Positions 9,213 through 34,749 of a DNA stretch of 64,000 nt are shown piece after piece. The stretch comes from Candidatus Thermosaccharophagus tengchongensis (GTDB lineage Bacteria > Armatimonadota > Fervidibacteria > Fervidibacterales > Thermosaccharophagaceae), in the NCBI GenBank assembly GCA_032161105.1, contig JAVHTD010000003.1; one strand, written 5' to 3'. The number at the start of each line of letters is the position of its first letter. Positions within the stretch are counted from its first letter, which is position 1. The notes under the pieces were generated by a model. That model did not search any database and was not told where the DNA came from. It saw only the letters and a program-made list of their open reading frames with translations. The position numbers and the translations under genes are program-made.

Positions 9213-9291
9213 CTTAGCCGCGTCAGCATTCGGTCACAAAGATGGATGCGACGAAGCCCTATGCATGTTCGGAGCGTGTGCCTTATGTGGC

Positions 9292-10710
9292 TTAATAGGG
9301 CGCTTCAAGCTCTCCATGCTCCTCATCACGGGCTACATCCGCAAACCGCGTGTAGCGCTTATCAAACTTCATCATGAACCTACCTGTAGGACCACTGCGC
9401 TGCTTTGCGATGATGACCTCTATGTCCTCAACTAATGGTCTACCCTCCTCAGCACCCTCAGCAGCTGCTTTCTTTCTCCTGCCCTTTTCATCCTCATCCT
9501 GCCTGTGGAGGAAGACGACGACATCAGCTTCGGCTTCAATTGCGCCGCTGTCGCGCAAGTCAGCGAGCATTGGTCTCCTTCCGGGACGATGCTCAACTGC
9601 CCTTGAAAGCTGTGATAGCGCCATCAGCGGAACATTCAACTCACGGGCGAGCAGCTTCAATGAGCGAGCTATGTCGGACACCTCCTGCGCCCTCGTCTCA
9701 GCCTTCCTTGGTGGCTTGACAAGTTGAAGGTAGTCAACGATGATTAAGCCAAGTCCCTTTTCAGCTTGCAGCCTCCTTGACAGCGCCCTTATTTCAAATG
9801 GGGATAGGTCTGGCGAGTCAACGATGTATATAGGAGCCTCGTATAGGTGCTGGCAGGCGAGTGAAAGCCTCTCCAAATCCTCATCGGCTACTGTTGAGCG
9901 CCTCATCACATGTTGGTCAACCATGGCGTATGTGCAAAGCATCCTTTGGATTAGCTCCTGCTTTGACATCTCAAGGCTGAATATGACGACTACCTGCCTT
10001 TCCTTGACCGCTACATTCAGCGCAACGCACAGTGCAAACGATGTCTTACCAACGCCGGGACGCGCTGCGACCACTATTAGTTCGGAGGGTTGCAAACCGC
10101 CAGTCCAGTAATCAAACATTCTGAACCCCGTCGGTATGCCGGTAAGGACGCCACCAAGTTCGTAGCGCCTTTCAATCTTGCTCCATGCCTCCATCAGCAA
10201 GCGCTGCAGCGGCTCATAGTGTGCACTGAGCCGTCTTTGACCGACTGATAGCACCTCAGCCTCAGCCCTGTCAATGACGGTATCCACATCCTCTTGCTCC
10301 TCATATGCCCATGCGGATATCCGTGATGCCGCAAGTATCAATCGGCGCAGTATCGCCTTGTCCACAACTATGCGCGCGTAGTCGGGAGCATTAACAGTGG
10401 ATGGACAACTCTCTATCAGAGTGCCGATATAGGCAGACCCGCCGACATGATCAAGTTGGTTGATTTTCCTGAGCTCATTGACGACCGTCACCATGTCCGT
10501 CGGTTCACCGCGATTGTAAAGCCGCAGGATGACATCGTATATGACCCTGTGATGCTCGTAGTAAAAGTCATCCGGGCGAAGTATAGTAGCCACCTGCGCA
10601 ACCGCGTCCTTATCAACCATCATCGCACCTAACACCGCTTGCTCAGCCTCAAGGCTATTCGGCATGACCCTATCAATTCCGGTTGCTTGAATGCCAGACA
10701 TGTTCACCAC
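9292..10710 (-). CDS. dnaB: Replicative DNA helicase
   Basis: EAEQAVLG, AARPGVGKT, FSLEM, IVDYLQL, LSQLSR, DLRDSGAIE; no intein. Confidence 0.97.
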   Translation of the reverse strand: MVNMSGIQATGIDRVMPNSLEAEQAVLGAMMVDKDAVAQVATILRPDDFYYEHHRVIYDVILRLYNRGEPTDMVTVVNELRKINQLDHVGGSAYIGTLIESCPSTVNAPDYARIVVDKAILRRLILAASRISAWAYEEQEDVDTVIDRAEAEVLSVGQRRLSAHYEPLQRLLMEAWSKIERRYELGGVLTGIPTGFRMFDYWTGGLQPSELIVVAARPGVGKTSFALCVALNVAVKERQVVVIFSLEMSKQELIQRMLCTYAMVDQHVMRRSTVADEDLERLSLACQHLYEAPIYIVDSPDLSPFEIRALSRRLQAEKGLGLIIVDYLQLVKPPRKAETRAQEVSDIARSLKLLARELNVPLMALSQLSRAVEHRPGRRPMLADLRDSGAIEAEADVVVFLHRQDEDEKGRRKKAAAEGAEEGRPLVEDIEVIIAKQRSGPTGRFMMKFDKRYTRFADVARDEEHGELEAPY

Positions 10711-11413: not shown

Positions 11414-13276
11414 TCATTCACCCAAGCGCCACTCAAGACCCACACCCAACCTGCCACCACGGCGCAACTCCTCAACGCCGATCCGCATGTAAAGCCCCTG
11501 CAGCAACCTCAAGCGAAGCCATGCGTTGTAATTCGGGTGGCTCGCATCGTAAGCGTTTAGCGAGAGTAAGCCGCCTTTGAAGCGCCAATCCAAACCGACG
11601 CCCAATTCGGAGCGATACACGCCAGCGCGCACAGCAAAGTTATCCGAGAGGAATTGACCGAGCTGCGCGATGCCATAACCCTTACCGCTGAGGTCATGCA
11701 CCCCAACCAAGCCGAATGAACGCCTGTATGGCGATGTGATTACAGCCTCAGCATCTCCGACTCCACCGCTGCCATTAAGATGCCAGATTGAGAGCGATGG
11801 CTGAACGCGCACGCGGGTCAACTCACGCACCGGGCGTTGTATATCGGATACGACCTCACTCCCGCGCTTTGCGAGTTCGCTCGCAGCCTTTGTAACCTCA
11901 GCAGCATTGAGAATCGTTTGCTTCACGCCAGCCATGAACTCCTCGCTTGAGGTCACCTCCTTCAAGTTAGCTGTGAGCTCCTTCACATTTTCGGTTGACT
12001 CGCGGAGGTTTGCGATAGCCAAGCGCACATTCTCGGCAACACCACCCTCGGTCACAAGCCATTTGAGCATCTTTGAGGTCTCCTCCAAGTTCTCGGACAG
12101 CCCTGCGAGGTTCTCCGTCAAGCGCTTGATGCTTTCCCTGTTCTCTGAGATCGTCTGGCGCAACTCGGATACGGTCTCTTCAAACTCCTTCATGCCCTTC
12201 GAACCAGATTGGAGAAGCTCATCGGCTTCGTCAAGCACTTTGGTTAACCTTCCGCGAAGCTCCTTATCGGAGAGCAACTCGGAAAGACGCTTGCTTGCCT
12301 CACCGATGTTTGCAATGGATGTGCGCAATCCCTCCCTCAACTCCTTGTCGGAGAGCAATTCATTGAGCTGCCTTGAAGCGCCCTCAATGTTGGCTACAGC
12401 CTTCACGATTGCCCCGCGAAGCTCCTTATCGGAGAGGAGCAATTGAAGCTCCTTGGAGGCGCGCTCCAAGTTGGAGATGAGTTTTGGCAGATCCTCTTGC
12501 AGGCGCCTGTCCGAGAGCAACCGCTTTAACTTCTCGGTCGCCTCGGATACATTTGCCGCTGTCACACTGATTGACTTGCGCAGCTTGGGATCACTTATGA
12601 GCATCTCAAGCTGCCTTGATGCACCTTCAATGTGCATTGCCGTCCGCTTAACAGCACCGATGAGCTGCGGGTCACCAGTTAACATGCGCAAGTTTTTGGC
12701 AGCCTTTGAAAGCTCTTTAGCCACATTGTGTATGGACTCTTGGAATGACTTGTCGCCTATCAGTCTCTCAAATGCGAGGGAAAGCCCATTTAAGTGGTCA
12801 ACGAGCTCTTGAGCCCTCGGAATGAGCTCCTCAAGCTCAACCGGCTCAACACCCTTCACAACAGCGCCGCTGCGCAACCTTTGCAGCTTGCCAACCACCT
12901 TTGGTGCGTCAACGCTCACATAAGCTTGCCCAAGCAACGGATGAACGCGAATTGAGAACCTTGAGTTGCGATAGACTGGCGCATCAGCTCTGACGATGGC
13001 TCTAACTGCAACTTTACCGTCGGGGCGGAACGAAACATCCCTAACAGTTCCAACCTTGACACCTTGCACATAAACCTCAGCGCCGCTGCGCAGACCGTGA
13101 GCGTCACTAACTACCACAGTGAACTGAATGCCGCGTTGAAACCATTTGAGCGGGCGGAGGAAAAAGACGACGGATACAAATAGAACCAGTGCGAGGGAGA
13201 CGAGCACGCCAACTTTAATCTCAATGTAGCGGCGCAACGCTGACCACCATCCCTTAAGTGCTTTTTGTTTAGCCAC
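11414..13276 (-). CDS. mlaD: Long MCE/MlaD family protein with helical repeats and beta-rich C-terminus
   Basis: TM, MCE motif DAHGL..GAEV..GVKVG.V, long helical region; follows mlaE-mlaF. Confidence 0.85.
   Translation of the reverse strand: MAKQKALKGWWSALRRYIEIKVGVLVSLALVLFVSVVFFLRPLKWFQRGIQFTVVVSDAHGLRSGAEVYVQGVKVGTVRDVSFRPDGKVAVRAIVRADAPVYRNSRFSIRVHPLLGQAYVSVDAPKVVGKLQRLRSGAVVKGVEPVELEELIPRAQELVDHLNGLSLAFERLIGDKSFQESIHNVAKELSKAAKNLRMLTGDPQLIGAVKRTAMHIEGASRQLEMLISDPKLRKSISVTAANVSEATEKLKRLLSDRRLQEDLPKLISNLERASKELQLLLSDKELRGAIVKAVANIEGASRQLNELLSDKELREGLRTSIANIGEASKRLSELLSDKELRGRLTKVLDEADELLQSGSKGMKEFEETVSELRQTISENRESIKRLTENLAGLSENLEETSKMLKWLVTEGGVAENVRLAIANLRESTENVKELTANLKEVTSSEEFMAGVKQTILNAAEVTKAASELAKRGSEVVSDIQRPVRELTRVRVQPSLSIWHLNGSGGVGDAEAVITSPYRRSFGLVGVHDLSGKGYGIAQLGQFLSDNFAVRAGVYRSELGVGLDWRFKGGLLSLNAYDASHPNYNAWLRLRLLQGLYMRIGVEELRRGGRLGVGLEWRLGE
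12206..12772 (-). repeat. Seven tandem 81-bp (27-aa) coding repeats in mlaD
   Basis: Units begin FERLIGDK, LRMLTGDP, LEMLISDP, LKRLLSDR, LQLLLSDK, LNELLSDK, LSELLSDK; CTCCTTRTCGGAGAG recurs at 81-bp spacing. Confidence 0.85.
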
Positions 13277-13313
13277 ACCTCATCGGCGAACTTCGGTATG
13301 GAGGCATAGGAAC

Positions 13314-14078
13314 TCAGGCTCCATGAACGCCAAAGCGAATGAACTTTTGCACGAGCGGATGATGGCTTGTCCTAATCGCCAGCGGCGTGTCGCAGACGAG
13401 TATCCTGCCATCGTGCAGCATCGCCATTCTGTCTGCGAGTTCAAAAGCGCTGTGTATGTCGTGCGTCACTATGACCGATGTCACACCATACCTTTTCCTC
13501 ATGTCGGAGATCAGCTTGTTTATTGCGTCAGCTGTGATCGGGTCTAAACCGCTCGTTGGCTCATCATAAAGCACAATCTCAGGATGCAGCGCAAGCGCCC
13601 TCGCAATGCCGATTCGCTTCCTCATTCCGCCGCTCAGCTCGGCTGGGAGAAGATGCCCGCTGTCGCTCATCCCGACGGCGTCAAGCAGCTCAATGACTCG
13701 TCCAATGATCTCGTCCTCAGTCATATCAGTGTGCTCGCGCAGTGGGAATGCGACATTTTCAAAGGCGGTGAGCGAATCAAACAGGGCGCCAAATTGAAAA
13801 ACCACCCCAAGGCGCTTCCTCACATCATTCAGTTGCCTTTCCGGAAGCGAAGTTATGTCAACTCCGAGCACCCTCACAACGCCGTATGTTGGGCGAAGCA
13901 AACCAGCAATCAGTTTTAGCAGCGTGCTCTTGCCGGCACCGGATGCACCAATGACGCACATTATCTCACCGCGCCTGACGCTCAAGCTGATGCCGCTTAA
14001 CACCTTCGTCCCATCTGGAGCTTCATAGTGCACATCGTCAAGCTCAATAACAATCTCGTCTTCGGCAATCCCTTTCAA
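13314..14078 (-). CDS. mlaF: MlaF-type ABC ATPase
   Basis: GASGAGKS, FQFGALFDSL, LSGGMRKR, YDEPTSGLDP. Confidence 0.92.
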   Translation of the reverse strand: MKGIAEDEIVIELDDVHYEAPDGTKVLSGISLSVRRGEIMCVIGASGAGKSTLLKLIAGLLRPTYGVVRVLGVDITSLPERQLNDVRKRLGVVFQFGALFDSLTAFENVAFPLREHTDMTEDEIIGRVIELLDAVGMSDSGHLLPAELSGGMRKRIGIARALALHPEIVLYDEPTSGLDPITADAINKLISDMRKRYGVTSVIVTHDIHSAFELADRMAMLHDGRILVCDTPLAIRTSHHPLVQKFIRFGVHGA

Positions 14079-14090
14079 GGCTCATTCGCC

Positions 14091-14948
14091 TCACTTCGGG
14101 AGCACGGACGACATTACAACATCGGCAACATACACGAATATGAGCGATAGGACAACTGCATCAGTTGTTGCCCTCCCGACGCCCATCGCGCCTCCAGTGG
14201 TCTCCAGACCCTGATGGCAGCTCACGATGGCGATGAGTATGCCAAATGGCACTGACTTGATTAACCCGATGAGCAAGTCTGTCACGGTGAGGAAGCTCCT
14301 GATTGAGTCCAAGAAAATATTCGGGTGAACACCGACGGCACTCGCAATGATCATGCCGCTCAATGTGCCAGCAATGTCGGCGAGCATCGTCAAAGCGGGC
14401 ATCATGATTATGCATGCGAGCATTCTCGGAACGACGAGGTAAGCGATTGGATCAACGGCGAGCGAGCGCAGGGCATCAATTTGTTCCGTCACCTTCATCG
14501 TCCCGAGTTCAGCCGCAAACGCAGCACCGACCCTCGCAGCAACAACGATGGCTGTCACCATAGGTCCGAGTTCGCGCACAATAGTGTATGCGAGCAGCCA
14601 GCCAACAAAATGCCCAGCGCCCCTCGTCGCCAACTCCTTCGCCGTGTAAAGCGAGAGCACTATGCCAGCCGATGAAACCGTTAAGAGGACAATGAGCAAC
14701 GATCTAACGCCGACCTCGTCCATTTGCTCAACGAGTTGGCGCAAGCGCAAGCGCTCACTAAATGCTGCCCTAACCGTGTCGGCAAAAAGCAATGCCACCT
14801 CGCCCAAGTAAGCTATCGGCATGATGATGAATTCGCCAATCCCATACTGCTTTGCCGGGCGTATCAATTGCCATTTAATCTTGCTGCGGTTGTTGAGCGC
14901 CCCACCATGATGAGCCATCGCCAAACTTCGCCCCCTGTGCGCTACCAT
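14091..14948 (-). CDS. mlaE: MlaE-type permease; start uncertain
   Basis: RELGP, AELGTMKVTEQIDAL, GVGRATT. Confidence 0.92.
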   Translation of the reverse strand: MVAHRGRSLAMAHHGGALNNRSKIKWQLIRPAKQYGIGEFIIMPIAYLGEVALLFADTVRAAFSERLRLRQLVEQMDEVGVRSLLIVLLTVSSAGIVLSLYTAKELATRGAGHFVGWLLAYTIVRELGPMVTAIVVAARVGAAFAAELGTMKVTEQIDALRSLAVDPIAYLVVPRMLACIIMMPALTMLADIAGTLSGMIIASAVGVHPNIFLDSIRSFLTVTDLLIGLIKSVPFGILIAIVSCHQGLETTGGAMGVGRATTDAVVLSLIFVYVADVVMSSVLPK

Positions 14949-16590: not shown

Positions 16591-16760
16591 CCATATCACC
16601 CCTCACCCAAGCATTATGATGCATGAAATGCATCGGCATTGTTGATGCGCTTGGTCAATACACTTGCGATGACATAACTTGTGGGCAAACATTACATGTG
16701 GAAAAAATATCATGGCAATTGATGCAACAAGCGTAATGCCAAGGGTAGAGGTGAAGTGGT

Positions 16761-18896
16761 ATGGAAACTACGGTCTGCCAGAGCTGCGGTGCTCGTAATG
16801 CAGCGCGAGCATCAGTATGCTGGCGATGCTATGCGCCGCTGAAGGGCAATGCAGCGCAGCCATCGGCGATTACCGTTCACCCATTTGCACAGTTGCTTCG
16901 CTCAAGCGCCGCGAGGTATCTCGCTGAAGTTCCACCCTATCAATGGTTTGCGCTGTTTGCAATCCTGCTTTTGCTCGGCATGGTGATGGTGCTTCGCCCA
17001 AGCGGCGAGGCTTTCTCATTACTTATCATTCGCGCCTCGCTTTTCATTCTCGGTGCTCTGGCAATGGATACTGCACTTGGGCAGGGAGGGATTGATCTAT
17101 CAATCGGCGCAACTGCGGCGCTTTCGGGGAGCATCGCCCTGCTTCTCCTGCCGATTGATGTAAGCGCTGCTGCGGCTGGTGGCTTCATCGCCGGCATACT
17201 CATGGGTCTAATCAATGCCCTCATAGTCGGCGTTGTGCCGATGCCGAAGGCAATAACCACAATTGCAACCGGCGCTTTAGCCCTCTACCTTTCCATCTCC
17301 ATTCGCGGCAAGCTGCCGCCAACTTGGGAGGATGCCCTCTTCGCCTTCCTATGCCGTGGGAGCGTATATGGCATCCCGCTGCCAGCACTCGTTATGGTGC
17401 TTATTGTGCTTGCCTTCTACTTCGTCTGGCTGAAGGAACTCACCAGAGTCGCCCCAACAAGGCATCGCCGAATGCCGGTAAGCGTTGAGCGTGTTTGGAT
17501 TGAGCCGGTATACATCTTCAGCGGATTGATTGCGGGCATTGTTGGCGTGCTCGGTGCTGCCGGGAGCAATGTGACCATGCAGCCGCTTGCGCCGGATTGG
17601 ACATGGGTGCTTGCACCATTAGTCGGGGCATTGATTGGCGGTGCAACATTATCCGGTGATGTCGGTGGAGTTGGCTCAGCAATTCTTGGCGGCATATTGC
17701 TGACGCTCATTTTGTCCCTCTGCGAGGAACTGCGCCTTCCGATTGCCGGATTGCCACTCGTCACATTGCTCCTGTTCGCCTCCGTCTACATGGATGGCTT
17801 AAAGCGAGCCACCTATGAGGATTTGAAGGCTGCATGGAAGCGATTTCTCGTCCGCCTTTGGGGTGAGGAACTTGACAGGACAAAGATGGCTCGCACTCTA
17901 TTTTGCATGTTCCTTGCATGCTGTGCGATTGTCTTCATTTGCTATGCCGCTGTCAGCTACTATGCCGTCAATAGAGTTCCACCGCACTTTGCCATGGCAT
18001 TACAGCCCTCTGGCGAGGTTGAAGTCCAAGTCAGTGAAGGATTGCCTTGGCAGCCAGTGCATCATCGGCAACTGCTAAGTGAGGGTGAAAGGGTGCGCCT
18101 CGGAGATGGCGCACGCATGCTTCTAAGATTCAGTGACGGGAGCACAATGGATGTGCGTGGCAGTTCGGAGTTCACATTGCTCTCAATTGATGACATGAGC
18201 ACCGGCATGCCGAGCACGAGATTTGAACTCACCTCAGGTGACTTGTGGGCGTGGATAAAGCGTTACATTGAGCGCCCAACTGATTACTCAATTGAGACGC
18301 CGGCTGTGGTTCTCGGTGTGCGCGGGACAAGGTTCAGGACGACCGTGAAAGGCGGAGAGGCGAGTGTATCAGTGATTGACGGAGCTGTTGCAGCGCATGT
18401 TCCGAGGGGCACGGAGATGATCACCGCCGGCGAGGGGGCACTCATAAGCAAGGTAACGAGGGCTATAAGGAAGATGCGCATCGCCGAAAACATATTGGCA
18501 TCGCTGCGTGCCGAATTCGCAGCTCTGCAAAGGTTGGTGGCAAAGGAGCTTCGGAGGGCTTGGAGGAATAACCTGCTTGAGCGCGGTTGGATTGTGTTGT
18601 GCATCGTGCTGATCGCCTTTAGCGCATTCAGCGCTTACATCTTCCACCTTGAGCGCCTTGAGGAGCAAAGGAAAGCCCTCTGGGATAGGCAATCTCAGAT
18701 GCTCGGCTTGGTGCACCTATATGTGCAGCAAAGGCGGCTTGATGAGGCGAGAAGGCTGCTCTACAAGATCATTGAGGAAGACCCACAGAGTGAATGGGGT
18801 ATAAGGGCGCAGCGCATGCTTGAAGAATGGGATGCGCAGAGAAGGGAAATTGAGGGTGAGGAGGACGAGGGAAAGCCGCATAGTGGCGGGCAGTGA
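16761..18896 (+). CDS. Fusion protein: Zn-ribbon + RbsC-like ABC permease + FecR domain + TM + TPR-like tail
   Basis: CQSC..CWRC; GGIDLSIGA, GIP, YIFSG, IGGATLSG; LRFSDGS, IETP..GVRGTRF, VSVIDGAV. Confidence 0.75.
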   Translation: METTVCQSCGARNAARASVCWRCYAPLKGNAAQPSAITVHPFAQLLRSSAARYLAEVPPYQWFALFAILLLLGMVMVLRPSGEAFSLLIIRASLFILGALAMDTALGQGGIDLSIGATAALSGSIALLLLPIDVSAAAAGGFIAGILMGLINALIVGVVPMPKAITTIATGALALYLSISIRGKLPPTWEDALFAFLCRGSVYGIPLPALVMVLIVLAFYFVWLKELTRVAPTRHRRMPVSVERVWIEPVYIFSGLIAGIVGVLGAAGSNVTMQPLAPDWTWVLAPLVGALIGGATLSGDVGGVGSAILGGILLTLILSLCEELRLPIAGLPLVTLLLFASVYMDGLKRATYEDLKAAWKRFLVRLWGEELDRTKMARTLFCMFLACCAIVFICYAAVSYYAVNRVPPHFAMALQPSGEVEVQVSEGLPWQPVHHRQLLSEGERVRLGDGARMLLRFSDGSTMDVRGSSEFTLLSIDDMSTGMPSTRFELTSGDLWAWIKRYIERPTDYSIETPAVVLGVRGTRFRTTVKGGEASVSVIDGAVAAHVPRGTEMITAGEGALISKVTRAIRKMRIAENILASLRAEFAALQRLVAKELRRAWRNNLLERGWIVLCIVLIAFSAFSAYIFHLERLEEQRKALWDRQSQMLGLVHLYVQQRRLDEARRLLYKIIEEDPQSEWGIRAQRMLEEWDAQRREIEGEEDEGKPHSGGQ

Positions 18897-18911
18897 AGAA
18901 GCCGCACCCCG

Positions 18912-20933
18912 ATGTGCGCCTTCATCATAACTCAAAAGCGCAAGGGTGATGATGTATTGAGCGCCCCAACAATGCAGCAGCGGTATGAGCGCGTCAGCGT
19001 TGCCCTCGGCATTGTCAGCGGCGTTTTGGTCTGTGCGCTTTTCCTATTGCGAATACCACCAATGCCGCAGCTTGATGATTGGCTGCTCAGGCAATGGTTT
19101 CTGCTACGAGGTGAACTGACCCACCCTGATGACATAGTCATCGTCGCGATAGACGACGAGAGCATAAGGCAGCTTGGTCGCTTCCCGTGGAGGCGAAGCG
19201 TGCATGCGAAGCTCCTGAAACACTTGAGGATGGCTAAAGTTGTGGTCATGGACATTTTGTTCGTTGAGCCGGATACGGAGCACCCAAGAGATGATGAACT
19301 CCTGAGCAACGCTATAGCTGAATGCGGCAACATCATCCTCCCAATGCTATACCTCGGTGAATCGCGCCCGCCACGAACTGACGATGAATGGAAGGCGCTC
19401 GAGATGGCATTGTGCAAGTTCGGGTATGCGCAGCTGAGAGGCATTGAGGGACTTTTTAAGGCGCTCATTGACGCAACGGCATCAGATGCGCATGAGGTTC
19501 TCAGGGCGCCAATAATGCCGTTCGTTGCCGGGTGCGCCGGCGCCGGAATAGCTCACTCACACCCTGACACAACGGGCATATACCGGCAGCTGCCGCTCGG
19601 AATGCCGGTTGAATGCCGAAGCAGCACGGACAAGCTGCGCGTATTGCCGAGTGTTGCCGTTGAAGCTGCAAGGATGGCTCTCGGCTTAAATAGGGATGAA
19701 ATTGAATTCCTCAAGGGCGGCGTGAAACTCGGCGGCACTTTTGTCCCAACGAGTGGTCCGAATTGGCTTATGGACATCAACTTCGTCGGCGGCAGGGGCG
19801 CATTCTACCAGCTGCCTTATCACCTTGTGTGCTCCGGGAGGGTCAGCGAAAAGGAGTTTGCCAATAAGATAGTCATTGTCGGGTTCACTGCCGAGGGGCT
19901 TTATGATATCCGCCCATCACCATTTAGCCAGTCCACATACGGTGTTGAGGTTTTGGCTAATGCAATACACACGCTTGTCCATGGGCAGCACCTCCGCCGT
20001 TTACCGCGCGGCTTTACCATGCTGCTCATCCTCGTCACCTCTGTGCTTCTTTCGTGGGCGCTGCCACGAATCAACCCATTGCTTGCCGTGTTAGTCATCG
20101 TCGCTTTAGCCTGTGCAATTATGCTGGCATGCGTGAAGCTCCTTTCGGAAAACATCCTTATCAACGCCTCACCGCTATACGCCGGTGCGATGCTCTCCTA
20201 TGCTCTTGTCACATCGTGGGGATATTTCAGCATCGGCAGAGAACACAGGCGCATCAAGAACCTGTTTGCCCTTTATGTGAGCGAGGAGATAGCCGAAAGG
20301 TTAGCCCGCTACCCGGAACTTGCAGCCATCGGTGGCGAAGAGAGGGAAGTGAGTGTGCTCTTTGCCGACATAAGGGACTTCACCGCAACGATGCAGCGTC
20401 TCGGCGCAAGAAAGCTCACAAAACTGTTAACCGAATACTTTACCGCCATGTCGGATGTGATAAAGCGCTACGGCGGCTTCGTTGATAAATTCGTCGGCGA
20501 CGAAGTGATGGCTTTGTTTGGTGCTCCAATGCCGATGGATAAACACGCACTCAGTGCCGTTATGGCTGCGCTTGAGATGCGCGCAGTGGCTGAATCACTC
20601 TCGCGAAGGTGGCGTGAACGAGGAGACCCCCAACTCAGAATCGGCATCGGCATATCCACGGGAATCGCATCAGTGGGAAACTTCGGAGCCGTTGACAGAT
20701 TCCAATACACTGCATTTGGCGATGCCGTCAACCTGGCTTCAAGGTTGCAGGCGCTGACGAAGGAGACAAATGCTACAATCCTTGTCTGCCCACGGACGGC
20801 GAGCGAAGTTGAGGATGTGGTTGAGCTTAGGTCTATTGGTAAGGTCACTGTGCGCGGCTTTAGCGAGCCAATAGAAATCTTTGAAGTCGTCGGAGTGAAG
20901 CCAAAAGGGAATGCCACCTCATCCGCCAGATGA
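18912..20933 (+). CDS. CHASE2 domain class III adenylate cyclase; start may be TTG 18957
   Basis: IVIVAIDDES..LGRFPW.R, YGVEVLAN, 3 TM, VLFADIRDFT, DKFVGD, YTAFGDAVNLASRL. Confidence 0.92.
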   Translation: MCAFIITQKRKGDDVLSAPTMQQRYERVSVALGIVSGVLVCALFLLRIPPMPQLDDWLLRQWFLLRGELTHPDDIVIVAIDDESIRQLGRFPWRRSVHAKLLKHLRMAKVVVMDILFVEPDTEHPRDDELLSNAIAECGNIILPMLYLGESRPPRTDDEWKALEMALCKFGYAQLRGIEGLFKALIDATASDAHEVLRAPIMPFVAGCAGAGIAHSHPDTTGIYRQLPLGMPVECRSSTDKLRVLPSVAVEAARMALGLNRDEIEFLKGGVKLGGTFVPTSGPNWLMDINFVGGRGAFYQLPYHLVCSGRVSEKEFANKIVIVGFTAEGLYDIRPSPFSQSTYGVEVLANAIHTLVHGQHLRRLPRGFTMLLILVTSVLLSWALPRINPLLAVLVIVALACAIMLACVKLLSENILINASPLYAGAMLSYALVTSWGYFSIGREHRRIKNLFALYVSEEIAERLARYPELAAIGGEEREVSVLFADIRDFTATMQRLGARKLTKLLTEYFTAMSDVIKRYGGFVDKFVGDEVMALFGAPMPMDKHALSAVMAALEMRAVAESLSRRWRERGDPQLRIGIGISTGIASVGNFGAVDRFQYTAFGDAVNLASRLQALTKETNATILVCPRTASEVEDVVELRSIGKVTVRGFSEPIEIFEVVGVKPKGNATSSAR

Positions 20934-23022
20934 GCCTTCTGGCTTTAGATTCAAACTCGGCAACGCTTGCCCTATCAAATCCAGCTGGAGAGTAAACGAG
21001 CCAAGAGAGATGCTCTAAAAGCTCCGAAGCGTTATGGAAGACAGCCCTCAACGACTCATCACAACGCTGTGCACGCAGCATGAGTGCTATCTGCAACGGC
21101 GTGTGGTGTGGCTCACAGCGCAAGCCGATGCGGGAAAGCTGGCGCACCAGCGCGGCATATGAGTTGTTCAGGCGCTGCCCAGGTGTGCGAGCACCCCAAA
21201 AGGCGGACTTAAGTTTTCCCCATTGATAGCGCAGCATTGGCGTGAATGAGACAATGGCAAGCAAACCAATGACGCACAGGAATAACCTTTGAACCATACG
21301 CCACCTTATTCGCAAGTGAATCTCACGCCACCAAGCGAGCATGTTCCACAACGGCGTGCGCCCCCTTGACGGTGGCGTCGGGTCAACTATGACCCATCCG
21401 TGCTTTGGGATGTAAATTTCAACCCACACATGTGCATCACGCTCGCGCAGAGTGAGCGTGCGGCTTTCGCCGTCATACTCATCGCTCATGAAGCCAGCAA
21501 CAATTCTGCTCGGTATGCCGACTGCCCTACACATGACTGCATGCGCGCTTGCGAAGAAGTCACACGCGCCCTCTTGCGATTCAAAAAGGAAGAAGTCAAC
21601 TGCATCGGAGTTTATGGGGACATGCGGTGGAGAGAGCGAATAGCGGCAATTCTCCCTCAGATATTCGGCGAGGCGCGCTGCCTTCTCGTAAATCGTCTCA
21701 GCGTCTGATGTAACCCGGCGCGCGAGCTCTACCACCCTTGTTGGGATGTCCGGAAGTTGCAAATACTTTAGGAGTTCATCACCGCTCAATTCCTCAGGGG
21801 ATGCCCTCGCATTCCGTATGGCATCCAGTGGCGGTTCATTGGCTGCCGCCACAATCCTATACACTCGCGGATAAAAGTTAACTTTGAACGCCCTCAGCGT
21901 GCCGCCATGCGAGAGGCGCAGGTCGGGCAAGCTCGCTTTCGTTTCCAGAAGGAGGGTTACTCCGGGTGTCATGAGAATCAATGAGCCCGCCCCAACTGGC
22001 ACCACTGTTGCGCTTATAATTTTGGGGTGGGGTGGCAAGCTCACATTGAACCTATAAGTTCCGTAGCTAACCTGCTCAGCCGTGATTTGTTCCTCATCCT
22101 CGCCATACTGCCAACCGTGCCCGGTGTATTCATCGTAGACTTGCACACGCCAATATGGGTAATAGTCGCCCCGTATCTCAAACATCTTCCTGTCCGACAA
22201 TCTTATCGGACCTCCCCAAAGGCTCATGTGGCGTGAGAACATTGTGAACTCAGGGGCAACCATGAGATACCTCTTTGGCACCGCCAGACGAACATTTGGC
22301 GGCGCAACGGGCATCCTCAGCAGGAGGAGCAACGGTGTCAACATCAAGCTTGTCAAAAGGATGGCTAAACTCCATTGCGCTCCTGAGTGGAAGTGAAAGC
22401 TCAAGAGAGAACGGTCGCTCAGCACCCTTTCGTCGCCCACTTTTGAGGCGCGCATCACCGTCGTCTCGTATGCCAAAAGGAAAGAGCCGAAGATGACGAT
22501 AGAGAGCGCCGCAATTGTCACCTCAATGTTGATGTTATGTGGCGCTGAGAGCGCAATCATTGAGAGCGATGGCAAAAGGACAAAAGATAGCGGCGCATAT
22601 TCATCATCGCCCCATCTGCCCGTGACTGTGAGAGTTATAACACACACCCATGTCATCAGAGCGAGCGGATGATAGTCACGGAGCTCAAAGACGATTGGCG
22701 GAAAGAAACGGTGCGGGTCTATGATAAACCCATACAGCGGTATGAGGATGACAAGGGTGAGCGACGCGGTCTGCCCAAACTGCTGCAGCCATTTTGAATC
22801 TCCGACCGAACGAATGTAGTTTGAGAGCAGACCAAGCATTGCGAACATAAAGACTGTGCTGCCAAATAGCGGTGCATCAATCGTCAGGGTTGATGCGAGT
22901 GATGCTGAAAGTGCCACCACAAGCGCGCATCCATATGCCGGCAGCGCTGCAAGGGCATTTCTCCACGGGACTTGCAACTCGCTTACTCGCATAGCCGATC
23001 CATCACCAACTCCGCTCAGCAT
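20860..23022 (-). CDS. TgpA-like membrane transglutaminase-domain protein
   Basis: N-terminal TMs; triad motifs GACDFFAS, AHVWVE, VDPTP. Confidence 0.85.
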   Translation of the reverse strand: MLSGVGDGSAMRVSELQVPWRNALAALPAYGCALVVALSASLASTLTIDAPLFGSTVFMFAMLGLLSNYIRSVGDSKWLQQFGQTASLTLVILIPLYGFIIDPHRFFPPIVFELRDYHPLALMTWVCVITLTVTGRWGDDEYAPLSFVLLPSLSMIALSAPHNINIEVTIAALSIVIFGSFLLAYETTVMRASKVGDERVLSDRSLLSFHFHSGAQWSLAILLTSLMLTPLLLLLRMPVAPPNVRLAVPKRYLMVAPEFTMFSRHMSLWGGPIRLSDRKMFEIRGDYYPYWRVQVYDEYTGHGWQYGEDEEQITAEQVSYGTYRFNVSLPPHPKIISATVVPVGAGSLILMTPGVTLLLETKASLPDLRLSHGGTLRAFKVNFYPRVYRIVAAANEPPLDAIRNARASPEELSGDELLKYLQLPDIPTRVVELARRVTSDAETIYEKAARLAEYLRENCRYSLSPPHVPINSDAVDFFLFESQEGACDFFASAHAVMCRAVGIPSRIVAGFMSDEYDGESRTLTLRERDAHVWVEIYIPKHGWVIVDPTPPSRGRTPLWNMLAWWREIHLRIRWRMVQRLFLCVIGLLAIVSFTPMLRYQWGKLKSAFWGARTPGQRLNNSYAALVRQLSRIGLRCEPHHTPLQIALMLRAQRCDESLRAVFHNASELLEHLSWLVYSPAGFDRASVAEFESKARRLIWRMRWHSLLASLRRLQRFLLAR

Positions 23023-23028
23023 GCAAGT

Positions 23029-24225
23029 TCACACCACCGGCAGGTGAAGGATTCTGCCTTCGCCATCGCGTATGCCGTGCACGATGCGCGCAAACCCGTT
23101 GTGGATAATGGCGCATGCGTCGCACTCAGCGATTATGCGTTCAATGTCCGGCGTGCGCGCTGTGGCAATCGCCACCAGACCAACTGAGCGCCCATAAGTC
23201 AGGCGATGCTTTTGGACAACCTCCACCAGTGGTGGCGCCGAGGATGGCTCAATTCGTGCGAGCTCGTAAAGCAACGCTTTGAGCTCGTGAACGCCATTTG
23301 CAGTCAATCCGGGTGATTGCACGAACGGCTCTGCCACGAGCGTAACTGTTGCGCCGGCTGAAAGGAGCTCATTAGCTATTGACGCCGCAATTGTGACGGT
23401 GTGCTCAATTGACGCATCAAGCCCGTCACCCCAATGCGAGCGCAAGCTGCAATCAACGAGCAAGACGGCATTGCCCTGCTTCTCCCTCTCAAGTTCCACG
23501 ATGTTCAACTTGCCCGTGTGAGCTGTAGCCTTCCAATGGATGCGCCTCCATGGGTCACCGGGACGATACTCACGGACGCCATAAAATTCCATCCCAAGCC
23601 TGCTAACATCGCCATCACCATCACTCATCTCCGTTAACACATGCCCGGCAACATGCCACACATCCGGCATGCTGATGATCTTGGGGAGGACGACGATTTC
23701 ACAATCGCACTGAAGACGCCTGACATCGCTGAACAATCCGAACGGGTCGCGCATGAGCACCATGATGTGGTCATATTTGTAAATGCCCCTTTTGAGCGCC
23801 TTCAGTCCGAAGCTGACCGACGCTGTGCCGTGCGCCGGTATAGCGAGCACAATCCTTTGGGAGCCGTTGAGAGCTTTGAGCCAGCGTTGCTTTGGAAGTA
23901 TCACCTCAATCAGGGAGCGCGCCAATCTGCTGCTGTTTGCAATCTCAACCGTCAACTCAAGTTCATCGCCACTTGACACCTCTCTTGGTCCGCGCACTGA
24001 CGCATACAATGAGTGGTGGCTAACCTTAACCCAGAGGAAGCTCAGGATGATGGTTGAAACTACGGCAGCGAAAAGGAACGCAAGGTGATAAATGCCGAAG
24101 ACGAAGCTGACAACCCAAAGCACGAATGCAGCCATGTAAAACGCAATTCGCCTCGTAAAGCTGCTGACAGGCGGAACTGTTTCGGCGAGCTCTTTGCCCA
24201 TGCTCATCACCGCATGCTGCTTCAT
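23029..24225 (-). CDS. DUF58 domain protein
   Basis: EFYGVREYRPGDPWRRIHWKATA; DPFGLF. Confidence 0.9.
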   Translation of the reverse strand: MKQHAVMSMGKELAETVPPVSSFTRRIAFYMAAFVLWVVSFVFGIYHLAFLFAAVVSTIILSFLWVKVSHHSLYASVRGPREVSSGDELELTVEIANSSRLARSLIEVILPKQRWLKALNGSQRIVLAIPAHGTASVSFGLKALKRGIYKYDHIMVLMRDPFGLFSDVRRLQCDCEIVVLPKIISMPDVWHVAGHVLTEMSDGDGDVSRLGMEFYGVREYRPGDPWRRIHWKATAHTGKLNIVELEREKQGNAVLLVDCSLRSHWGDGLDASIEHTVTIAASIANELLSAGATVTLVAEPFVQSPGLTANGVHELKALLYELARIEPSSAPPLVEVVQKHRLTYGRSVGLVAIATARTPDIERIIAECDACAIIHNGFARIVHGIRDGEGRILHLPVV

Positions 24226-24312
24226 TGCTACACTTCATTATTGCGCAGCCGGCTTGAATTCAACCAAAGAAAAGCCCGAGCTTGGCTGCCGCAAGCGAAG
24301 GGGTGTGATGAT

Positions 24313-26262
24313 ATGGAAAACGAGCATGGCGGTTATTTCATCATCGGCACCGCAGGGCATGTTGACCACGGCAAGACCGAACTCATAAAGGCTTTGACGG
24401 GCTTAGACACGGATAGGCTGCCTGAGGAAAAAATGCGCGGCATGTCCATTGACCTCGGGTTTGCGTATTTCAAACTCCCAGATGGAAGGGTTGTGGGCAT
24501 AGTTGATGTCCCCGGGCATGAACGCTTCGTCCATAACATGCTTGCTGGGGCTGCCGGGATGGATTTGGTTCTCATGGTGATCGCCGCCGATGAAGGTGTC
24601 ATGGCGCAGACGGTTGAGCACTTAAACATTTTGCAATTGCTCAATGTGCGTGAGGGCATCATCGTCATCACGAAGCGTGACTTGGTTGACGATGAATGGC
24701 TGCAGCTTGTCATTGAGGATGTGCGTGAGCGCTTTAAAGGGACATTCCTTGACGGCGCCCCAATCGTCGCAGTTTCATCCGTGACTGGCGAGGGTTTAAG
24801 TGAGCTCGTGCAGCTTATCCAGCGCAAGGCAATGGAGGTCAAACCGAGGAAGGAAGTGGAGCGCCCGTTCAGACTGCCGATTGATAGGGCGTTTATCAGG
24901 GCTGGCTTTGGCGTGATCGTCACTGGGACTGCATTCTCCGGCGAGGTGAGCGTTGGACAGGAGGTTGAGATATCGCCCATCGGCGTTCGCACGCGCATTC
25001 GCAGCATGCAAGTCCACAAACAAAGTGTTGAGAGGGCATTCGCCGGGCAGCGTGTGGCAATGAACTTGGCTGGAATTGAGAGGGAAAGCATTGAGCGCGG
25101 TTATGTCGTAACTGAGGTCGGCTACATGCCACCAACTAACAGGATAGCCGTCCATGTGCGCCTCCTGCCAAGCGCAAAGAAACCGCTCAGAGATGGAGCA
25201 CCAGTGCGCCTTCACATTGGCACTGGAGAGTGGGTCGCAAGGCTGCTATTGCTCTCGGGAAATGAGCTTGCACCTGGAGAGGATGCATTTGCCGAGTTGC
25301 GCGCCGATGAATATCTCGCCTGTGTGCGCTACGACCGCTTCGTCATACGCTCATACTCGCCGATTGAGACAATAGGTGGCGGCATCGTCATTGAGCCATA
25401 TCCGCCAAAGCTCCGCAGGCGATCGCAACGCTACATTGAAAGTTGCAAGCGAAAGTCAACAGGCGACTACGAAGCTGCAGCTGAGATGCTGCTTGAAGAG
25501 CACGCAAACGGCTTAAGTGTGAGAGAGCTCTCCGTGCTGCTCCACATGAAACTGCAGCACACAGCCGACTTGCTCAACATGCTGTGCAAGCGTGGCAGCG
25601 CAATCAGACTCGGTGACGACCTCTGCATCTCGGCAACCACTTACAAGGTTGCAAAGGATGAAGTGCTCTCACTTTTGCGCTCATATCATCAAGAGCACCC
25701 GCTGCACATGGGAATGAGGAAGAGCGTGCTGTTTGGGCAGGTTAGCAGCATTAGCAATGAAGCCACACTTGAGCTATTGCTGCTGCGTCTTCAAGAGGAA
25801 AACGAAATAGCGGTTGAGCGTGAGCTTGTGCGGCTGCGCTCGCATTCGCCCTCACTCAGTGGACGATACTTGGAGATAGCCAACAGCATGCTCAAAATTT
25901 GCTCCGAAGCCGGCTTTGCCCCGCCATCAACTGCGGAACTGATGCGACATTTTGCGGGCATGCAAAGGGAGGCATCCGAAGTGCTTCATGCGCTGCTTGA
26001 GAGCGAACAATTGTTGCTCGTTGATGAGTTTGTCTTCCACCCGCACACCATAGAGCGCGCAAAACAACTGATCAGCGAGCACATAGAGAAACACGGAAGG
26101 ATAACCGTCGCCGAATTCAGGGACATGGCTGGCATCACGAGGAAGTATGCAACGCCAATACTTGAGCACCTTGACCGAGTGGGCTTTACGCAGCGCCTCG
26201 GCGATTACCGAATATTGCGCTCCAAGGCTCACAAGGCACAACAGCAAACTGCCAAACCATGA
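24313..26262 (+). CDS. selB: Selenocysteine-specific translation elongation factor
   Basis: GTAGHVDHGKT, GMSIDLGFA, DVPGHERF; C-terminal winged helix ITRKYATPILEHLD. Confidence 0.96.
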   Translation: MENEHGGYFIIGTAGHVDHGKTELIKALTGLDTDRLPEEKMRGMSIDLGFAYFKLPDGRVVGIVDVPGHERFVHNMLAGAAGMDLVLMVIAADEGVMAQTVEHLNILQLLNVREGIIVITKRDLVDDEWLQLVIEDVRERFKGTFLDGAPIVAVSSVTGEGLSELVQLIQRKAMEVKPRKEVERPFRLPIDRAFIRAGFGVIVTGTAFSGEVSVGQEVEISPIGVRTRIRSMQVHKQSVERAFAGQRVAMNLAGIERESIERGYVVTEVGYMPPTNRIAVHVRLLPSAKKPLRDGAPVRLHIGTGEWVARLLLLSGNELAPGEDAFAELRADEYLACVRYDRFVIRSYSPIETIGGGIVIEPYPPKLRRRSQRYIESCKRKSTGDYEAAAEMLLEEHANGLSVRELSVLLHMKLQHTADLLNMLCKRGSAIRLGDDLCISATTYKVAKDEVLSLLRSYHQEHPLHMGMRKSVLFGQVSSISNEATLELLLLRLQEENEIAVERELVRLRSHSPSLSGRYLEIANSMLKICSEAGFAPPSTAELMRHFAGMQREASEVLHALLESEQLLLVDEFVFHPHTIERAKQLISEHIEKHGRITVAEFRDMAGITRKYATPILEHLDRVGFTQRLGDYRILRSKAHKAQQQTAKP

Positions 26263-27668: not shown

Positions 27669-27717
27669 GCAGGTAACGGAATCAGAATGACACGCCTCCA
27701 ACAAGAGGGTGGTGATC

Positions 27718-28089
27718 ATGTTCCCGCAACTTGAGGGGGATGTGCTGCACATCATTTGGAAACTTGGCAGCGCTTCGGTTGCGGATGTTTGTAAGGCGCT
27801 CCGCTCACTCGGCAAGCGCAGGGCATACACAACCATCATGACGACGATGGCTCGCCTATATCGTAAGGGCTTCCTCAGGCGCACGAAAGCCGGAAAGCGC
27901 TACATCTACGAACCAACCATTTCACATTCTGAGGCTGCAAGGCTGTTTGTCAGCGCATTCCTTGAGCGCATGTTCATGTGGTTTGGAGAGCCAGCATCAG
28001 CATACCTCATTGAAGCTCTGAATAAGCGTTCATCAAGGGCGGCGTTAAGTGGGCGCACGAGCAAAAGGGAAATGCGCCGAAACGGGTGA
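27718..28089 (+). CDS. BlaI/MecI/CopY family repressor
   Basis: LEGDVLHIIW, AYTTIMTTMARLYRKGFL, YIYEP. Confidence 0.9.
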   Translation: MFPQLEGDVLHIIWKLGSASVADVCKALRSLGKRRAYTTIMTTMARLYRKGFLRRTKAGKRYIYEPTISHSEAARLFVSAFLERMFMWFGEPASAYLIEALNKRSSRAALSGRTSKREMRRNG

Positions 28090-28095
28090 GCGTGC

Positions 28096-29139
28096 GTGGA
28101 GATCGTGCTTATCAGCGCATTCATCTTCTTGGTCGCGTCAAACATAGCCATGATGCTGACTTGCGCCACGCTGTGGGCGACTCAACGGCTGTGGGCTCGC
28201 ATAAAAAACGCCATGACGATGGGTTGGTTTGCCGCAGCCATCCTCCTGCCGCTGGCAGTCGGCATTGCGACTTCAGCATCTGCATCAATCTCGGCGGCAT
28301 GGTGCATATCTTGCAAGCACCCGCTGCATTACGATTGGCACTTGCAAAGATGCTTCCTGCCATACATGCACTGGTGCGCTCATTTGGGGTGCAGCAACAA
28401 ATTGATTGCCATTCGCATCGCGGCAGCGGTATCAAACACGATGAAACTCATGGGCAACATCCTCATCATCCTCTTCATCATTGGTCGCATTGCGTGGCAC
28501 GGGGTGTGGAAGAGAGCCATCAAGCCACCATCTGCAAAGCTCTTATCAGCAGCGAGCATGCTGCCTGAGTTCTCAAGCAGCAAAATGCGAATTGCCGAGT
28601 GCGATCTGGACTTCTGTCCCGCCGGTCTATTCGGATGGCTTTCCCCGACATGTGTCATATCAAGCGACATCGCAAAAGCGCTCACAGAGAGCGAACTTGC
28701 GGCAGTCATACAGCACGAGCTAATTCACAAGCGCCGTCATGACCATGTGCTTCGCATGCTGCTTCGCTTGCTTTCGTGCGTCTTCCTGTCGCTGCCTTGG
28801 TTTTCATGGCTGCGCAGGAGCCTGGAAGAAGCTGTTGAGGACGGTGCATGCACAGAGATGGCATTGCGGCAATGCGCACCCGATTTTGAAAGCGCCATGA
28901 GGAAGTGCATTGAGATGCTGCGCGAGCGCGGCGCTCCGGAAGATGCGCTAAAAGCGCTTACACATCGCCTTGAGAGCATGAGGCTAAGGGGCAAACAGCA
29001 ACGCCAGTTACAACCTCGCATGTGGCTTGCAGCATCACTTGCCTGTGCGACGCTCGTTGCGCTTGTGCTCCTGCTTGCGAAGCCAGTTTTCGGAACGGCT
29101 CACTGCTTCCTTGAGGTAGTGTTGTGCGGGGCAAATTAA
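28096..29139 (+). CDS. M56 family (BlaR1-like) membrane metallopeptidase without a penicillin-binding domain
   Basis: GWLSP, ELAAVIQHELIHKRRHD (HExxH); follows the BlaI gene. Confidence 0.85.
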   Translation: MEIVLISAFIFLVASNIAMMLTCATLWATQRLWARIKNAMTMGWFAAAILLPLAVGIATSASASISAAWCISCKHPLHYDWHLQRCFLPYMHWCAHLGCSNKLIAIRIAAAVSNTMKLMGNILIILFIIGRIAWHGVWKRAIKPPSAKLLSAASMLPEFSSSKMRIAECDLDFCPAGLFGWLSPTCVISSDIAKALTESELAAVIQHELIHKRRHDHVLRMLLRLLSCVFLSLPWFSWLRRSLEEAVEDGACTEMALRQCAPDFESAMRKCIEMLRERGAPEDALKALTHRLESMRLRGKQQRQLQPRMWLAASLACATLVALVLLLAKPVFGTAHCFLEVVLCGAN

Positions 29140-33645: not shown

Positions 33646-34371
33646 ATGATGGTAGTAAGGAAGCGCGGCTTTACGCTGATTGAGCTTCTCGTCGTGATAG
33701 CCATAATCGCGATCCTGGCGGCGATTCTGTTCCCGGTGTTTGCCAAGGCTCGCGAGAAGGCAAGGATGACTTCATGCCAGTCAAACTTGAAGCAGCTCGC
33801 TCTCGGACTGCTCCAATATGTTCAGGACTACGATGAGAAGTTCCCAACCTACTACTGGGGCGAAGGAAATAGCGGCGTTCCAAACTCGTGCACATGGTGG
33901 GCTGGCATCTATCCGTATGTGAAGAACCTGCAGATTTACAAGTGCCCGAGTAGCCCGATAAATTCGCACAACACTCATCAAGTCTGGATTAACAACAACC
34001 CGCCATTCAACACGCCCGGCTTCGTTAACAACTACGGTTATAACGAACTCATCGGGAATGCAAGCGGTGGACTGCCATTAGCCCGCTTGAACAACCCAGC
34101 AGAGACTTTGGTGTTGGCAGATTGCACATCCACTTGGATTGGTGGCTATTGGCGATCTGCCGATAGACCGCACCTTCGCCGTGTGGCATTTGCAAGGGGC
34201 GGCGCACCATGCGGCTGCCCACCAAACCTCACAATGAACGAGGATTGGACATTGCACCTCGGTGGCTCAAACCTCGCCTTCGCCGATGGGCATGTCAAAT
34301 GGTTTCATTGGGCACAGGTGCGCACAATAACTGGTGGCGGTAAGATACGATACTACGACTGGGAATGGTAA
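33646..34371 (+). CDS. Prepilin-type N-methylation / DUF1559 / H-X9-DG protein
   Basis: [49 protein letters not shown]. Confidence 0.92.
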
Positions 34372-34410
34372 TGCTCGGGGATGACATCGGCGCGCTAATG
34401 GCTAAAAATG

Positions 34411-34437
34411 GGGCGGACTATGGTCCGCCCAACTTTT
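34411..34437 (+). terminator. Intrinsic terminator, possibly bidirectional
   Basis: GGGCGGAC-TATG-GTCCGCCC then AACTTTT; A-run upstream. Confidence 0.75.
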
Positions 34438-34502
34438 GCTTCCCTCCCACAACAGCGCGCTACTGATGCTATGCGCAAAAGGATGCACCACAATGGCAGC
34501 AC

Positions 34503-34530
34503 TTGACAACGCAGCCAGAGATGCTAAGCT
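34503..34530 (+). promoter_or_regulatory. sigma70-type promoter, copy 1
   Basis: TTGACA-16 nt-TAAGCT with extended -10 TG. Confidence 0.6.
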
Positions 34531-34720
34531 AAATAACAGCTCGTGAGCGGCATGCCAAAATTGAATGTGCGGCATGTGCATAACGGGGTTTTGTGACGGT
34601 GTGGCTCAACCTCATTGGCACATGAGCGGATGTTGAAGTTGCCAAAGCTTCCGTCGGCGCATCTCATGTGCCACACTTAATGATGTCACGCAACGAAGGC
34701 GCACCTTGACAGGGTGGCAC

Positions 34721-34749
34721 TTGACAACGCAACCGGATGATGCTAAATT
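34721..34749 (+). promoter_or_regulatory. sigma70-type promoter, copy 2
   Basis: TTGACA-17 nt-TAAATT with extended -10 TG. Confidence 0.7.

Follow-up and report, generated by a model that had tools for sequence, protein, structure and literature searches.

A permease-derived membrane domain fused to a FecR domain and paired with a CHASE2 adenylate cyclase: a candidate signalling pair in Candidatus Thermosaccharophagus tengchongensis

Overview of the gene pair

The DNA analyzed here is a stretch of 64,000 nt (the window) from contig JAVHTD010000003.1 of the Candidatus Thermosaccharophagus tengchongensis assembly GCA_032161105.1 (Armatimonadota; Fervidibacteria). Between positions 16761 and 20933 it carries two open reading frames (ORFs) that we consider somewhat probable to form a membrane signalling pair, in which a permease-derived platform presents a FecR domain to a CHASE2 cyclase. 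ORF1 (16761..18896, + strand, 711 amino acids) is composed of a zinc ribbon, a permease-derived domain of ten transmembrane (TM) helices, an eleventh helix (TM11), a FecR domain, a twelfth helix (TM12), and a TPR-like tail. ORF2 (18912..20933, + strand, 673 amino acids) is a CHASE2 class III adenylate cyclase, with a probable true start at the TTG codon at 18957. Both were delimited as longest-frame ORFs and by domain scans. They are the longest frames of the region, with the coordinates already given in the initial annotation, an earlier reading of this DNA, and every motif quoted there is present in the two translations.

The membrane domain of ORF1 resembles the permeases of sugar ATP-binding cassette (ABC) importers; the segment through which such permeases engage their ATPase is deleted or degenerate in it and in all of its relatives that were aligned, and no partner ATPase gene lies nearby. 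Outside the genus, a cyclase gene of the CHASE2 type adjoins nearly every evaluable copy of the fusion.

Descent of the membrane domain

As the initial annotation had supposed, the N-terminal membrane domain (residues 56-345; 16926..17795, + strand) is, judged from profile comparisons and a predicted structure, descended from an RbsC/AraH-type (BPD_transp_2) permease. For ORF1 taken alone the likeness is real and weak. A PF02653 scan of its own genome finds four canonical permeases, ORF1 not among them, and ORF1 falls short of the curated PF02653 cut-off while sharing homology and fold with the family. The best NCBIfam matches of residues 64-349 are to AraH (1.6e-9), RbsC (1.5e-8), and AlsC (5.3e-8), all far under their cut-offs (37.3 bits against 378 in the case of AraH).

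The matter is settled by profile alignment, by the relatives, and by the model. A profile of the first 405 residues, made from the window sequence and three relatives, was compared by hhalign with three canonical permeases that this genome encodes and aligned over 251 columns with 97.8% probability (E = 1.2e-12). A profile was also run exhaustively against 1.84 billion representatives and returned 1911 proteins at E ≤ 1e-3; among the matches listed, those that start in the zinc ribbon are, after ORF1's own family (P0007), long proteins. All nine of the long proteins scanned have a FecR domain over the cut-off, and BPD_transp_2 exceeds its Pfam cut-off in seven of them; in another set of relatives with the same architecture it does so in four of five. 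A word-index search with the family profile gave only the close family and ordinary permeases and is uninformative on distribution.

The AlphaFold2 (AF2) model of residues 1-405, built from 145 alignment rows, has a mean predicted local distance difference test score (pLDDT) of 87.2 and a predicted template modelling score (pTM) of 0.82, with a pLDDT of 87 for the permease domain. VIA-align comparison of this model with 48,161 solved chains ranked HmuU highest (Z = 16.4; 263 residues, root-mean-square deviation 5.0), then HI1471 (Z = 15.3), FhuB (Z = 13.8), and PsaC (Z = 12.4), followed by a drop to Z = 8.1 in the next row; all four top matches come from type II ABC importers, of which they are the membrane subunits. 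With the same model Foldseek found nothing in the PDB at E ≤ 1e-3, its best match being BhuU at 4.5e-3, and ranked the same proteins first. Neither the N-terminal profile nor a canonical RbsC-type profile retrieved a permease chain in sequence searches of the PDB, so the fold is compared here with related families and not with RbsC itself. A search of the ESM Atlas gave no usable match.

Loss of the ATPase-coupling loop

The cytoplasmic loop between TM6 and TM7 is what we take to be the ATPase-docking or coupling element of ABC importers, and the initial annotation held that ORF1 has lost it. This is borne out by an alignment in which the membrane domains of 14 fusions stand against 124 permeases of canonical length (123 taken from the profile search and one from the window's own genome). 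It was scored over the 49 columns with at least 75% conservation in the canonical set; column counts were used in place of a strict regular expression for the coupling motif, which matched only 73 of 123 canonical sequences. In the canonical proteins the loop reads GRxxYAxGGNxxAARxxG, and each of its eight columns is conserved in 91-120 of the 124, whereas in all 14 fusions it is deleted or degenerate. Its leading Gly-Arg-x-x is deleted in 11 of the fusions, the first Gly being kept in two, and the two later Gly are kept in five and three. At the positions of the Tyr, both Ala, and the Asn, the commonest residues listed for the fusions are different ones. A remnant of the form PVGGAPxRxEAA survives in four members (P0012, P0024, P0059, and P0013, the last a partial record of 458 amino acids), which supports descent from a canonical permease.

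In ORF1 the degenerate loop, identified by alignment, conservation, and the model, spans residues 223-249 (17427..17507, + strand); the segment at the site of the canonical motif is LKELTRVAPTRHRRMPVSVERV (residues 224-245). Residues 231-243 are modelled as coil with a pLDDT of about 51, and few segments of the protein are less conserved than the loop (27% across 10 fusions). The positions within the membrane are largely kept: D112, G149, and G293-G294 in 14/14 fusions, T167 and P206 in 13/14, and N152 in 12/14. Mean pairwise identity across 10 fusions is 42-48% in the permease-derived domain and 38% in FecR, which argues that this domain is not a decaying relic but is under constraint.

The genes of a transporter are missing as well, in agreement with the initial annotation, which had seen no cognate ATPase or binding protein adjacent to ORF1. 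None lies beside ORF1 or elsewhere in the 64-kb window, where the only two ATPases accompany the MlaE/MlaD and the ZnuA/ABC-3 genes, and no ABC ATPase was matched in seven distant fusion loci (L038-L044). The canonical permease loci of the same genome do carry ATPase and binding-protein genes.

Domain architecture and topology of ORF1

ORF1 begins with a cytoplasmic C4 zinc ribbon (residues 1-28; 16761..16844, + strand), assigned from conserved cysteines, weak Pfam matches, and the model. The cysteines are spaced C6-x2-C9-x10-C20-x2-C23; in 10 fusions all four are unchanged, and in 12 nearly so. The Pfam zinc-ribbon matches are under the cut-off, an L40e-like match was found, and the AF2 model of residues 1-405 shows short strands with pLDDT 80-90. 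The permease-derived domain that follows bears the motifs GGIDLSIGA (109-117), GIP (204-206), YIFSG (251-255), and IGGATLSG (292-299). It is succeeded by a basic cytoplasmic linker helix (residues 346-379) and by TM11 (residues 380-403), which leads outward (17796..17969 together, + strand); loop 345-379 holds nine Lys and Arg, hydropathy places the TM segment at 380-398, and AF2 models helices at 352-367 and 373-404.

The region beyond TM11 (17970..18587, + strand) is predicted to lie outside the cytoplasm and contains the FecR β-domain and then a long helix (residues 557-609). The FecR domain covers residues 444-543 and scores 52.5 bits against the PF04773 cut-off of 24, which places it in the family; its motifs are FSDGS (457-461), ETPAVVLGVRGTRF (512-525), and VSVIDGAV (536-543), and its best NCBIfam likeness is to Lsa33/LipL45, the FecR-type surface proteins of Leptospira. 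The chain ends with TM12 (residues 610-630, 610-628 by hydropathy) and a cytoplasmic, TPR-like hairpin tail (18588..18893, + strand, for both), where the TPR_19 and TPR_14 matches are under the cut-off and conservation falls from 79% among close relatives to 42% among distant ones.

This topology was assigned from hydropathy and charge. The segments rich in Lys and Arg (residues 1-53, 223-249, and 345-379) fall on one side, taken as the cytoplasm; helix 380-398 would then lead out, residues 399-609 would lie outside, and helix 610-628 would return. Two sub-architectures are found in the family, one of about 700 amino acids with TM12 and the TPR-like tail, and one of about 1000 amino acids with a long outward extension that has a weak fn3 match. 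The longer relatives lack TM12 and carry the fn3-like extension after FecR, which fits the outward location of that domain. Hydropathy and charge thus put FecR and the CHASE2 domain of ORF2 on one and the same face of the membrane, the outer one, and not on opposite sides.

The cyclase

ORF2 contains a CHASE2 domain (residues 39-379, 157.4 bits) and a Guanylate_cyc domain (residues 478-653, 79.8 bits), both over the Pfam cut-off. The CHASE2 domain (19026..20048, + strand) is flanked by a TM helix at 28-46 and a TM cluster from residue 364 and is predicted to be extracytoplasmic. The catalytic domain (20343..20870, + strand), defined by Pfam and by alignment with CyaB, carries FADIRDFT, DKFVGD, and YTAFGDAVNLASRL. 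Among solved structures it is matched best by the CyaB catalytic domain (3r5g, E = 2.3e-39); DKFVGD and VNLASRL are identical in the two, the YT of YTAFGD is kept, and so is the DIR of FADIRDFT (FSDIRGFT in CyaB). We assume here the usual residue roles of class III cyclases, that is, metal-binding Asp, substrate-binding Lys and Thr, and transition-state Asn and Arg. The shared motifs then make ORF2 a well supported candidate for an adenylate cyclase of the Lys/Thr type by sequence comparison, and the Lys of DKFVGD and the Thr of YTAFGD, from which the initial annotation had read ATP specificity, are shared with this solved adenylate cyclase.

The 15-nt gap reported earlier between the two genes applies to the longest ORF2 only. 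ORF2 of close relatives starts at the position of TTG 18957 (MSAPTMQQRYER), and the stretch AAGGGTGA lies directly 5′ of this codon in the window; from the start in the relatives, the intergenic gap is probably about 60 nt rather than 15.

Authenticity, distribution, and origin of the fusion

The fusion is genuine. Three independent hot-spring metagenome runs yielded contigs over 16966-21000, 16600-21000, and 16911-21000 that differ from the window by substitutions only, without indels, and that bridge both the junction between the permease-derived and FecR domains and the boundary between ORF1 and ORF2, and an assembly artefact is thereby ruled out.

Relatives of ORF1 form seven clusters of 60-99% identity, all full length. 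Relatives carry the names Armatimonadota, Candidatus Zipacnadales, and Candidatus Thermosaccharophagus. A full-length match to the fusion was obtained in 11 of 301 sampled Armatimonadota genomes, from four families, in a survey that scored two candidates per genome and may therefore have missed some; none was seen, with the same two candidates scored per genome, in 20 sampled genomes of the other family in the same order. The membrane domains of the 14 fusions lie together on the same side of a branch with a support of 92 (trees here are from FastTree, and all supports are Shimodaira-Hasegawa-like only). A single origin of the fusion is plausible from this tree. P0140, the sister of the fusion clade, was considered as a split form and rejected, being an ordinary divergent permease with the loop motif.

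Linkage to CHASE2 genes

Conserved synteny with the cyclase was found across families despite a differing gene order. A CHASE2 cyclase gene lies directly upstream of the fusion, on the same strand, in eight of the nine evaluable loci outside the genus (L038, L039, which equals L048, L040, L041, L042, L043, L051, and L052), with a 197-aa ORF between the two genes in L042; two further loci, L049 and L050, end at a contig edge and were left out of the count. Within the genus of the window the order is reversed, fusion then cyclase, both in the window and in 3/3 genus loci. The whole neighbourhood is syntenic in the genus, so the linkage there says little; outside the genus the pair alone is conserved, and no third gene recurs around the distant pairs. 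The cyclases beside seven distant fusions form a clade of their own (support 99), apart from the cyclases of the same genomes that are linked to simple FecR proteins.

Simple FecR proteins of this kind are common in the phylum. Positions 360-576 of the fusion profile match many ORFs of about 300 amino acids in Armatimonadota genomes, at about 1e-35 to 1e-40, whose products have one membrane helix at the N-terminus, followed by FecR and an Ig-like tail. In 14 of the 16 loci of this kind that were retrieved (L061-L076), a CHASE2 gene is no more than about 3 kb away, mostly in divergent transcription, and the other two loci end at contig edges. Ten of these 14 CHASE2 genes have a detectable cyclase domain. 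Genomes G027 and G113 hold both module types, each with a cyclase of a different clade, and this separation fits partner-specific paralogous modules.

Compared with ORF1, the single-anchor proteins share the phylum, the FecR part, and the CHASE2 neighbour but have no zinc ribbon, permease domain, TM12, or TPR tail, and they are mostly transcribed divergently from the cyclase. Since simple anchors are the usual form beside CHASE2 in the phylum, the fusion is a derived variant of a known FecR-CHASE2 pairing, and only its permease-derived anchor is unusual.

We also noticed several features at individual loci. Three of the CHASE2 genes beside single-anchor FecR proteins (L067, L070, and L072) lack a cyclase domain by tblastn, and their output may differ. 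The fusion-linked cyclase ORF of L043 (10067-13327, − strand) is 1087 amino acids long, with about 420 residues before CHASE2 that have no Pfam match and represent either an extra domain or an over-long ORF call. The fusion of L044 (G179:C116, about 7981-9900) has no Pfam BPD_transp_2 match, and its neighbours are a large TPR protein, a DnaJ-TPR protein, and a VIT-VWA protein.

Proposed function and alternative explanations

In the signalling pair that we propose, the CHASE2 domain of ORF2 would face outward and its catalytic domain would make cyclic AMP (cAMP) inside the cell. ORF1 would be an inner-membrane protein of 12 helices that holds FecR on the outer face of the membrane, where FecR would meet CHASE2 and the contact would set the activity of the cyclase. 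With its docking loop lost, the permease-derived domain would no longer be a transporter driven by ATP; its most likely role is that of a platform independent of any ATPase, probably dimeric as its ancestors were, and it may in addition be an input site that biases FecR through TM11. The initial annotation had put forward a permease fold repurposed as a sensor or scaffold that signals through FecR-CHASE2 contact. The descent of the domain, the loop loss, the lack of an ATPase, the reality of the fusion, the linkage, and the shared side of the membrane all agree with this proposal; the contact itself, the direction of control, dimerisation, and any ligand or sensing role of the permease-derived domain are the parts that we infer.

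Several observations weigh against such a pair. Pfam BPD_transp_2 has no match in ORF1 at E ≤ 1, and loss of the loop motif would not alone be proof against ATPase binding. The AF2 model of full-length ORF1 (seven sequences; pLDDT 42, pTM 0.24) is unusable for the arrangement of the domains. In L044 the fusion stands without a cyclase within about 6-8 kb. The cyclases of the window genus group with the second CHASE2 cyclase of their own genome (support 95) and not with the other seven, which indicates that the pair was not simply co-inherited. That second cyclase (G000:C14:58139-59923; L059:4999-7008) has no adjoining FecR gene, and a second FecR protein of 213 amino acids (G000:C1:204078-204386; L060:4971-5609, − strand) has no adjoining CHASE2 gene, so adjacency is not obligatory; the two might act together in trans.

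Sensing could also lie at the center of the system. The permease-derived domain would then bind a sugar or, like RbsC, dock a periplasmic binding protein loaded with sugar, and signal through TM11 and FecR to CHASE2, with cAMP reporting carbohydrate supply. We regard this as unlikely, although the intramembrane permease motifs are kept in 13-14 of 14 members, the domain is as well conserved as FecR, the canonical RbsC-type systems of the genome include potentially shareable binding proteins (an RbsB-type one is encoded at L004:2385-3392), the name Thermosaccharophagus is attached to relatives, and glycoside hydrolases occur near some loci. The conserved glycines may merely maintain the fold, however, and the FecR partners of about 300 amino acids with a single anchor work without any permease domain. 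If true, an ABC importer would for the first time be known as an ATPase-free "transceptor", and a CHASE2 receptor would have a named physiological input.

More conventional roles fare worse. That ORF1 is the membrane part of a working ABC importer, with its ATPase encoded elsewhere, FecR as an add-on, and the cyclase incidental, is scarcely credible and was rejected: the fold and core motifs are kept, one relative is annotated "ribose transport system permease protein", and some ABC systems do share ATPases, but the loop conserved in 91-120 of 124 canonical permeases is lost in 14/14 fusions, no ATPase is found in the seven distant loci or beside ORF1, and the cyclase is linked in 8/9 loci and in two gene orders. 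Equally hard to sustain, and very improbable in our estimate, is a FecR that acts as in the FecR/PupR-type anti-sigma factors or in another envelope pathway independent of the cyclase. The FecR domain does exceed its Pfam cut-off, and a cytoplasmic zinc ribbon recalls zinc-binding anti-sigma domains; yet scans of 47 window ORFs, six of them neighbours and the other 41 searched at E ≤ 1e-8, show no sigma-factor family, it is the cyclase that is conserved as a neighbour, and the best NCBIfam likeness is to surface proteins of Leptospira and not to anti-sigma factors. Assignment to the FecR/PupR anti-sigma factors was rejected, there being no extracytoplasmic function (ECF) sigma neighbour and the N-terminus consisting of a zinc ribbon and a permease domain.

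The platform that presents FecR to the cyclase would be of interest in several respects. Which signals CHASE2 domains recognise is unknown according to the available part of PMC5192318, and FecR-domain neighbours are their most recurrent clue. The fusion ties such a partner covalently to a transporter fold and thereby offers a concrete hypothesis: the inputs could be sugars or binding proteins, or the permease domain could bring about dimerisation. The membrane core of this ABC permease has also been kept under selection after loss of the ATPase interface, a natural example that bears on the recruitment of transporter folds into signalling. As a two-gene pair from a thermophile, it is suited to reconstitution and structural work.

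Other features of the window

On the 5′ side of ORF1, domain scans identify BioY and DUF456 genes and then an MlaFED-like set (11414-14948, − strand), which consists of MlaE, MlaF, and a 620-aa MlaD-domain protein. The last is much longer than an ordinary MlaD, with helical repeats in the middle that contain LLSD(K/P)(E/Q)LR and a Gly/Tyr-rich end.

On the 3′ side of ORF2, a transglutaminase-like membrane protein (720 amino acids) and a DUF58 protein (398 amino acids) are encoded on the opposite strand (20860-24225, − strand) and overlap the cyclase ORF at its 3′ end, by about 70 nt; this pair beside the cyclase is conserved within the genus only. Domains of the selenocysteine elongation factor SelB follow at 24085-26262 (+ strand), implying selenoprotein use. 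The true SelB start is probably later than that of the longest ORF, because this frame opens far upstream of its GTPase domain and runs over the beginning of the DUF58 gene on the opposite strand. Downstream of the Znu-type ABC system, the window also holds a BlaI/BlaR1-like pair of repressor and M56 peptidase and two prepilin-type proteins (N_methyl and DUF1559), at 27709-29136 and 33646-35758 (+ strand).

Comparison with known systems

The pairing of FecR with CHASE2 is itself not new, and such neighbourhoods are in print. The published systems are cited here from partial texts, to which all statements about them are limited. A LysM-FecR protein lies beside a CHASE2 histidine kinase in the "BiofilmReg" operon of Burkholderia and in Burkholderiales and Pseudomonas aeruginosa (PMC5192318). 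A CHASE2 adenylate cyclase clusters with a phosphodiesterase, a FecR protein, and a TPR protein in Campylobacterota (PMC9239204), and in magnetotactic bacteria a CHASE2 cyclase gene follows mtxA (PMC4439547). A FecR-domain protein and a TPR protein of Sinorhizobium meliloti, both under cAMP control, are reported to be dispensable for signal perception (PMC5498481).

The gene pair of the window shares with the published FecR-CHASE2 pairs a FecR protein outside the cytoplasm, an adjacent gene for a CHASE2 receptor, and an associated TPR element, and it shares the cAMP output with the Campylobacterota system. It differs in that the published FecR proteins are described as exported, outer-membrane, or periplasmic, whereas the FecR domain of ORF1 would be held in the inner membrane by a ten-helix domain with a zinc ribbon. 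The TPR piece is likewise a fused cytoplasmic tail in ORF1, unlike in the published systems. The available texts of PMC5192318, PMC9239204, and PMC4439547 mention no permease fusion. Full-text searches of literature readable without subscription yielded no description of a permease-FecR fusion, in keeping with the earlier remark that the architecture is not known from any characterised protein.

With the RbsC/AraH/AlsC permeases of the CUT2 type, ORF1 has in common the ten helices, GGIDLS, N152, T167, P206, IGG..L.G, and the type II importer fold. Those permeases have the GRxxYAxGGNxxAARxxG loop and genes for an ATPase and a binding protein, while ORF1 has neither; in ORF1 signalling domains are fused to the membrane domain, which scores under every curated permease cut-off.

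We know of no described ATPase-less ABC importer permease fused to a FecR domain. Sensors derived from or coupled to transporters are familiar in other forms, among them BceAB with BceS, the SLC5-like domain of CbrA, LysP with CadC, and DctA with DcuS. In these, as would hold for ORF1, a transporter fold feeds or scaffolds a signalling protein; they differ from ORF1 in that their transporters are still active or belong to other folds.

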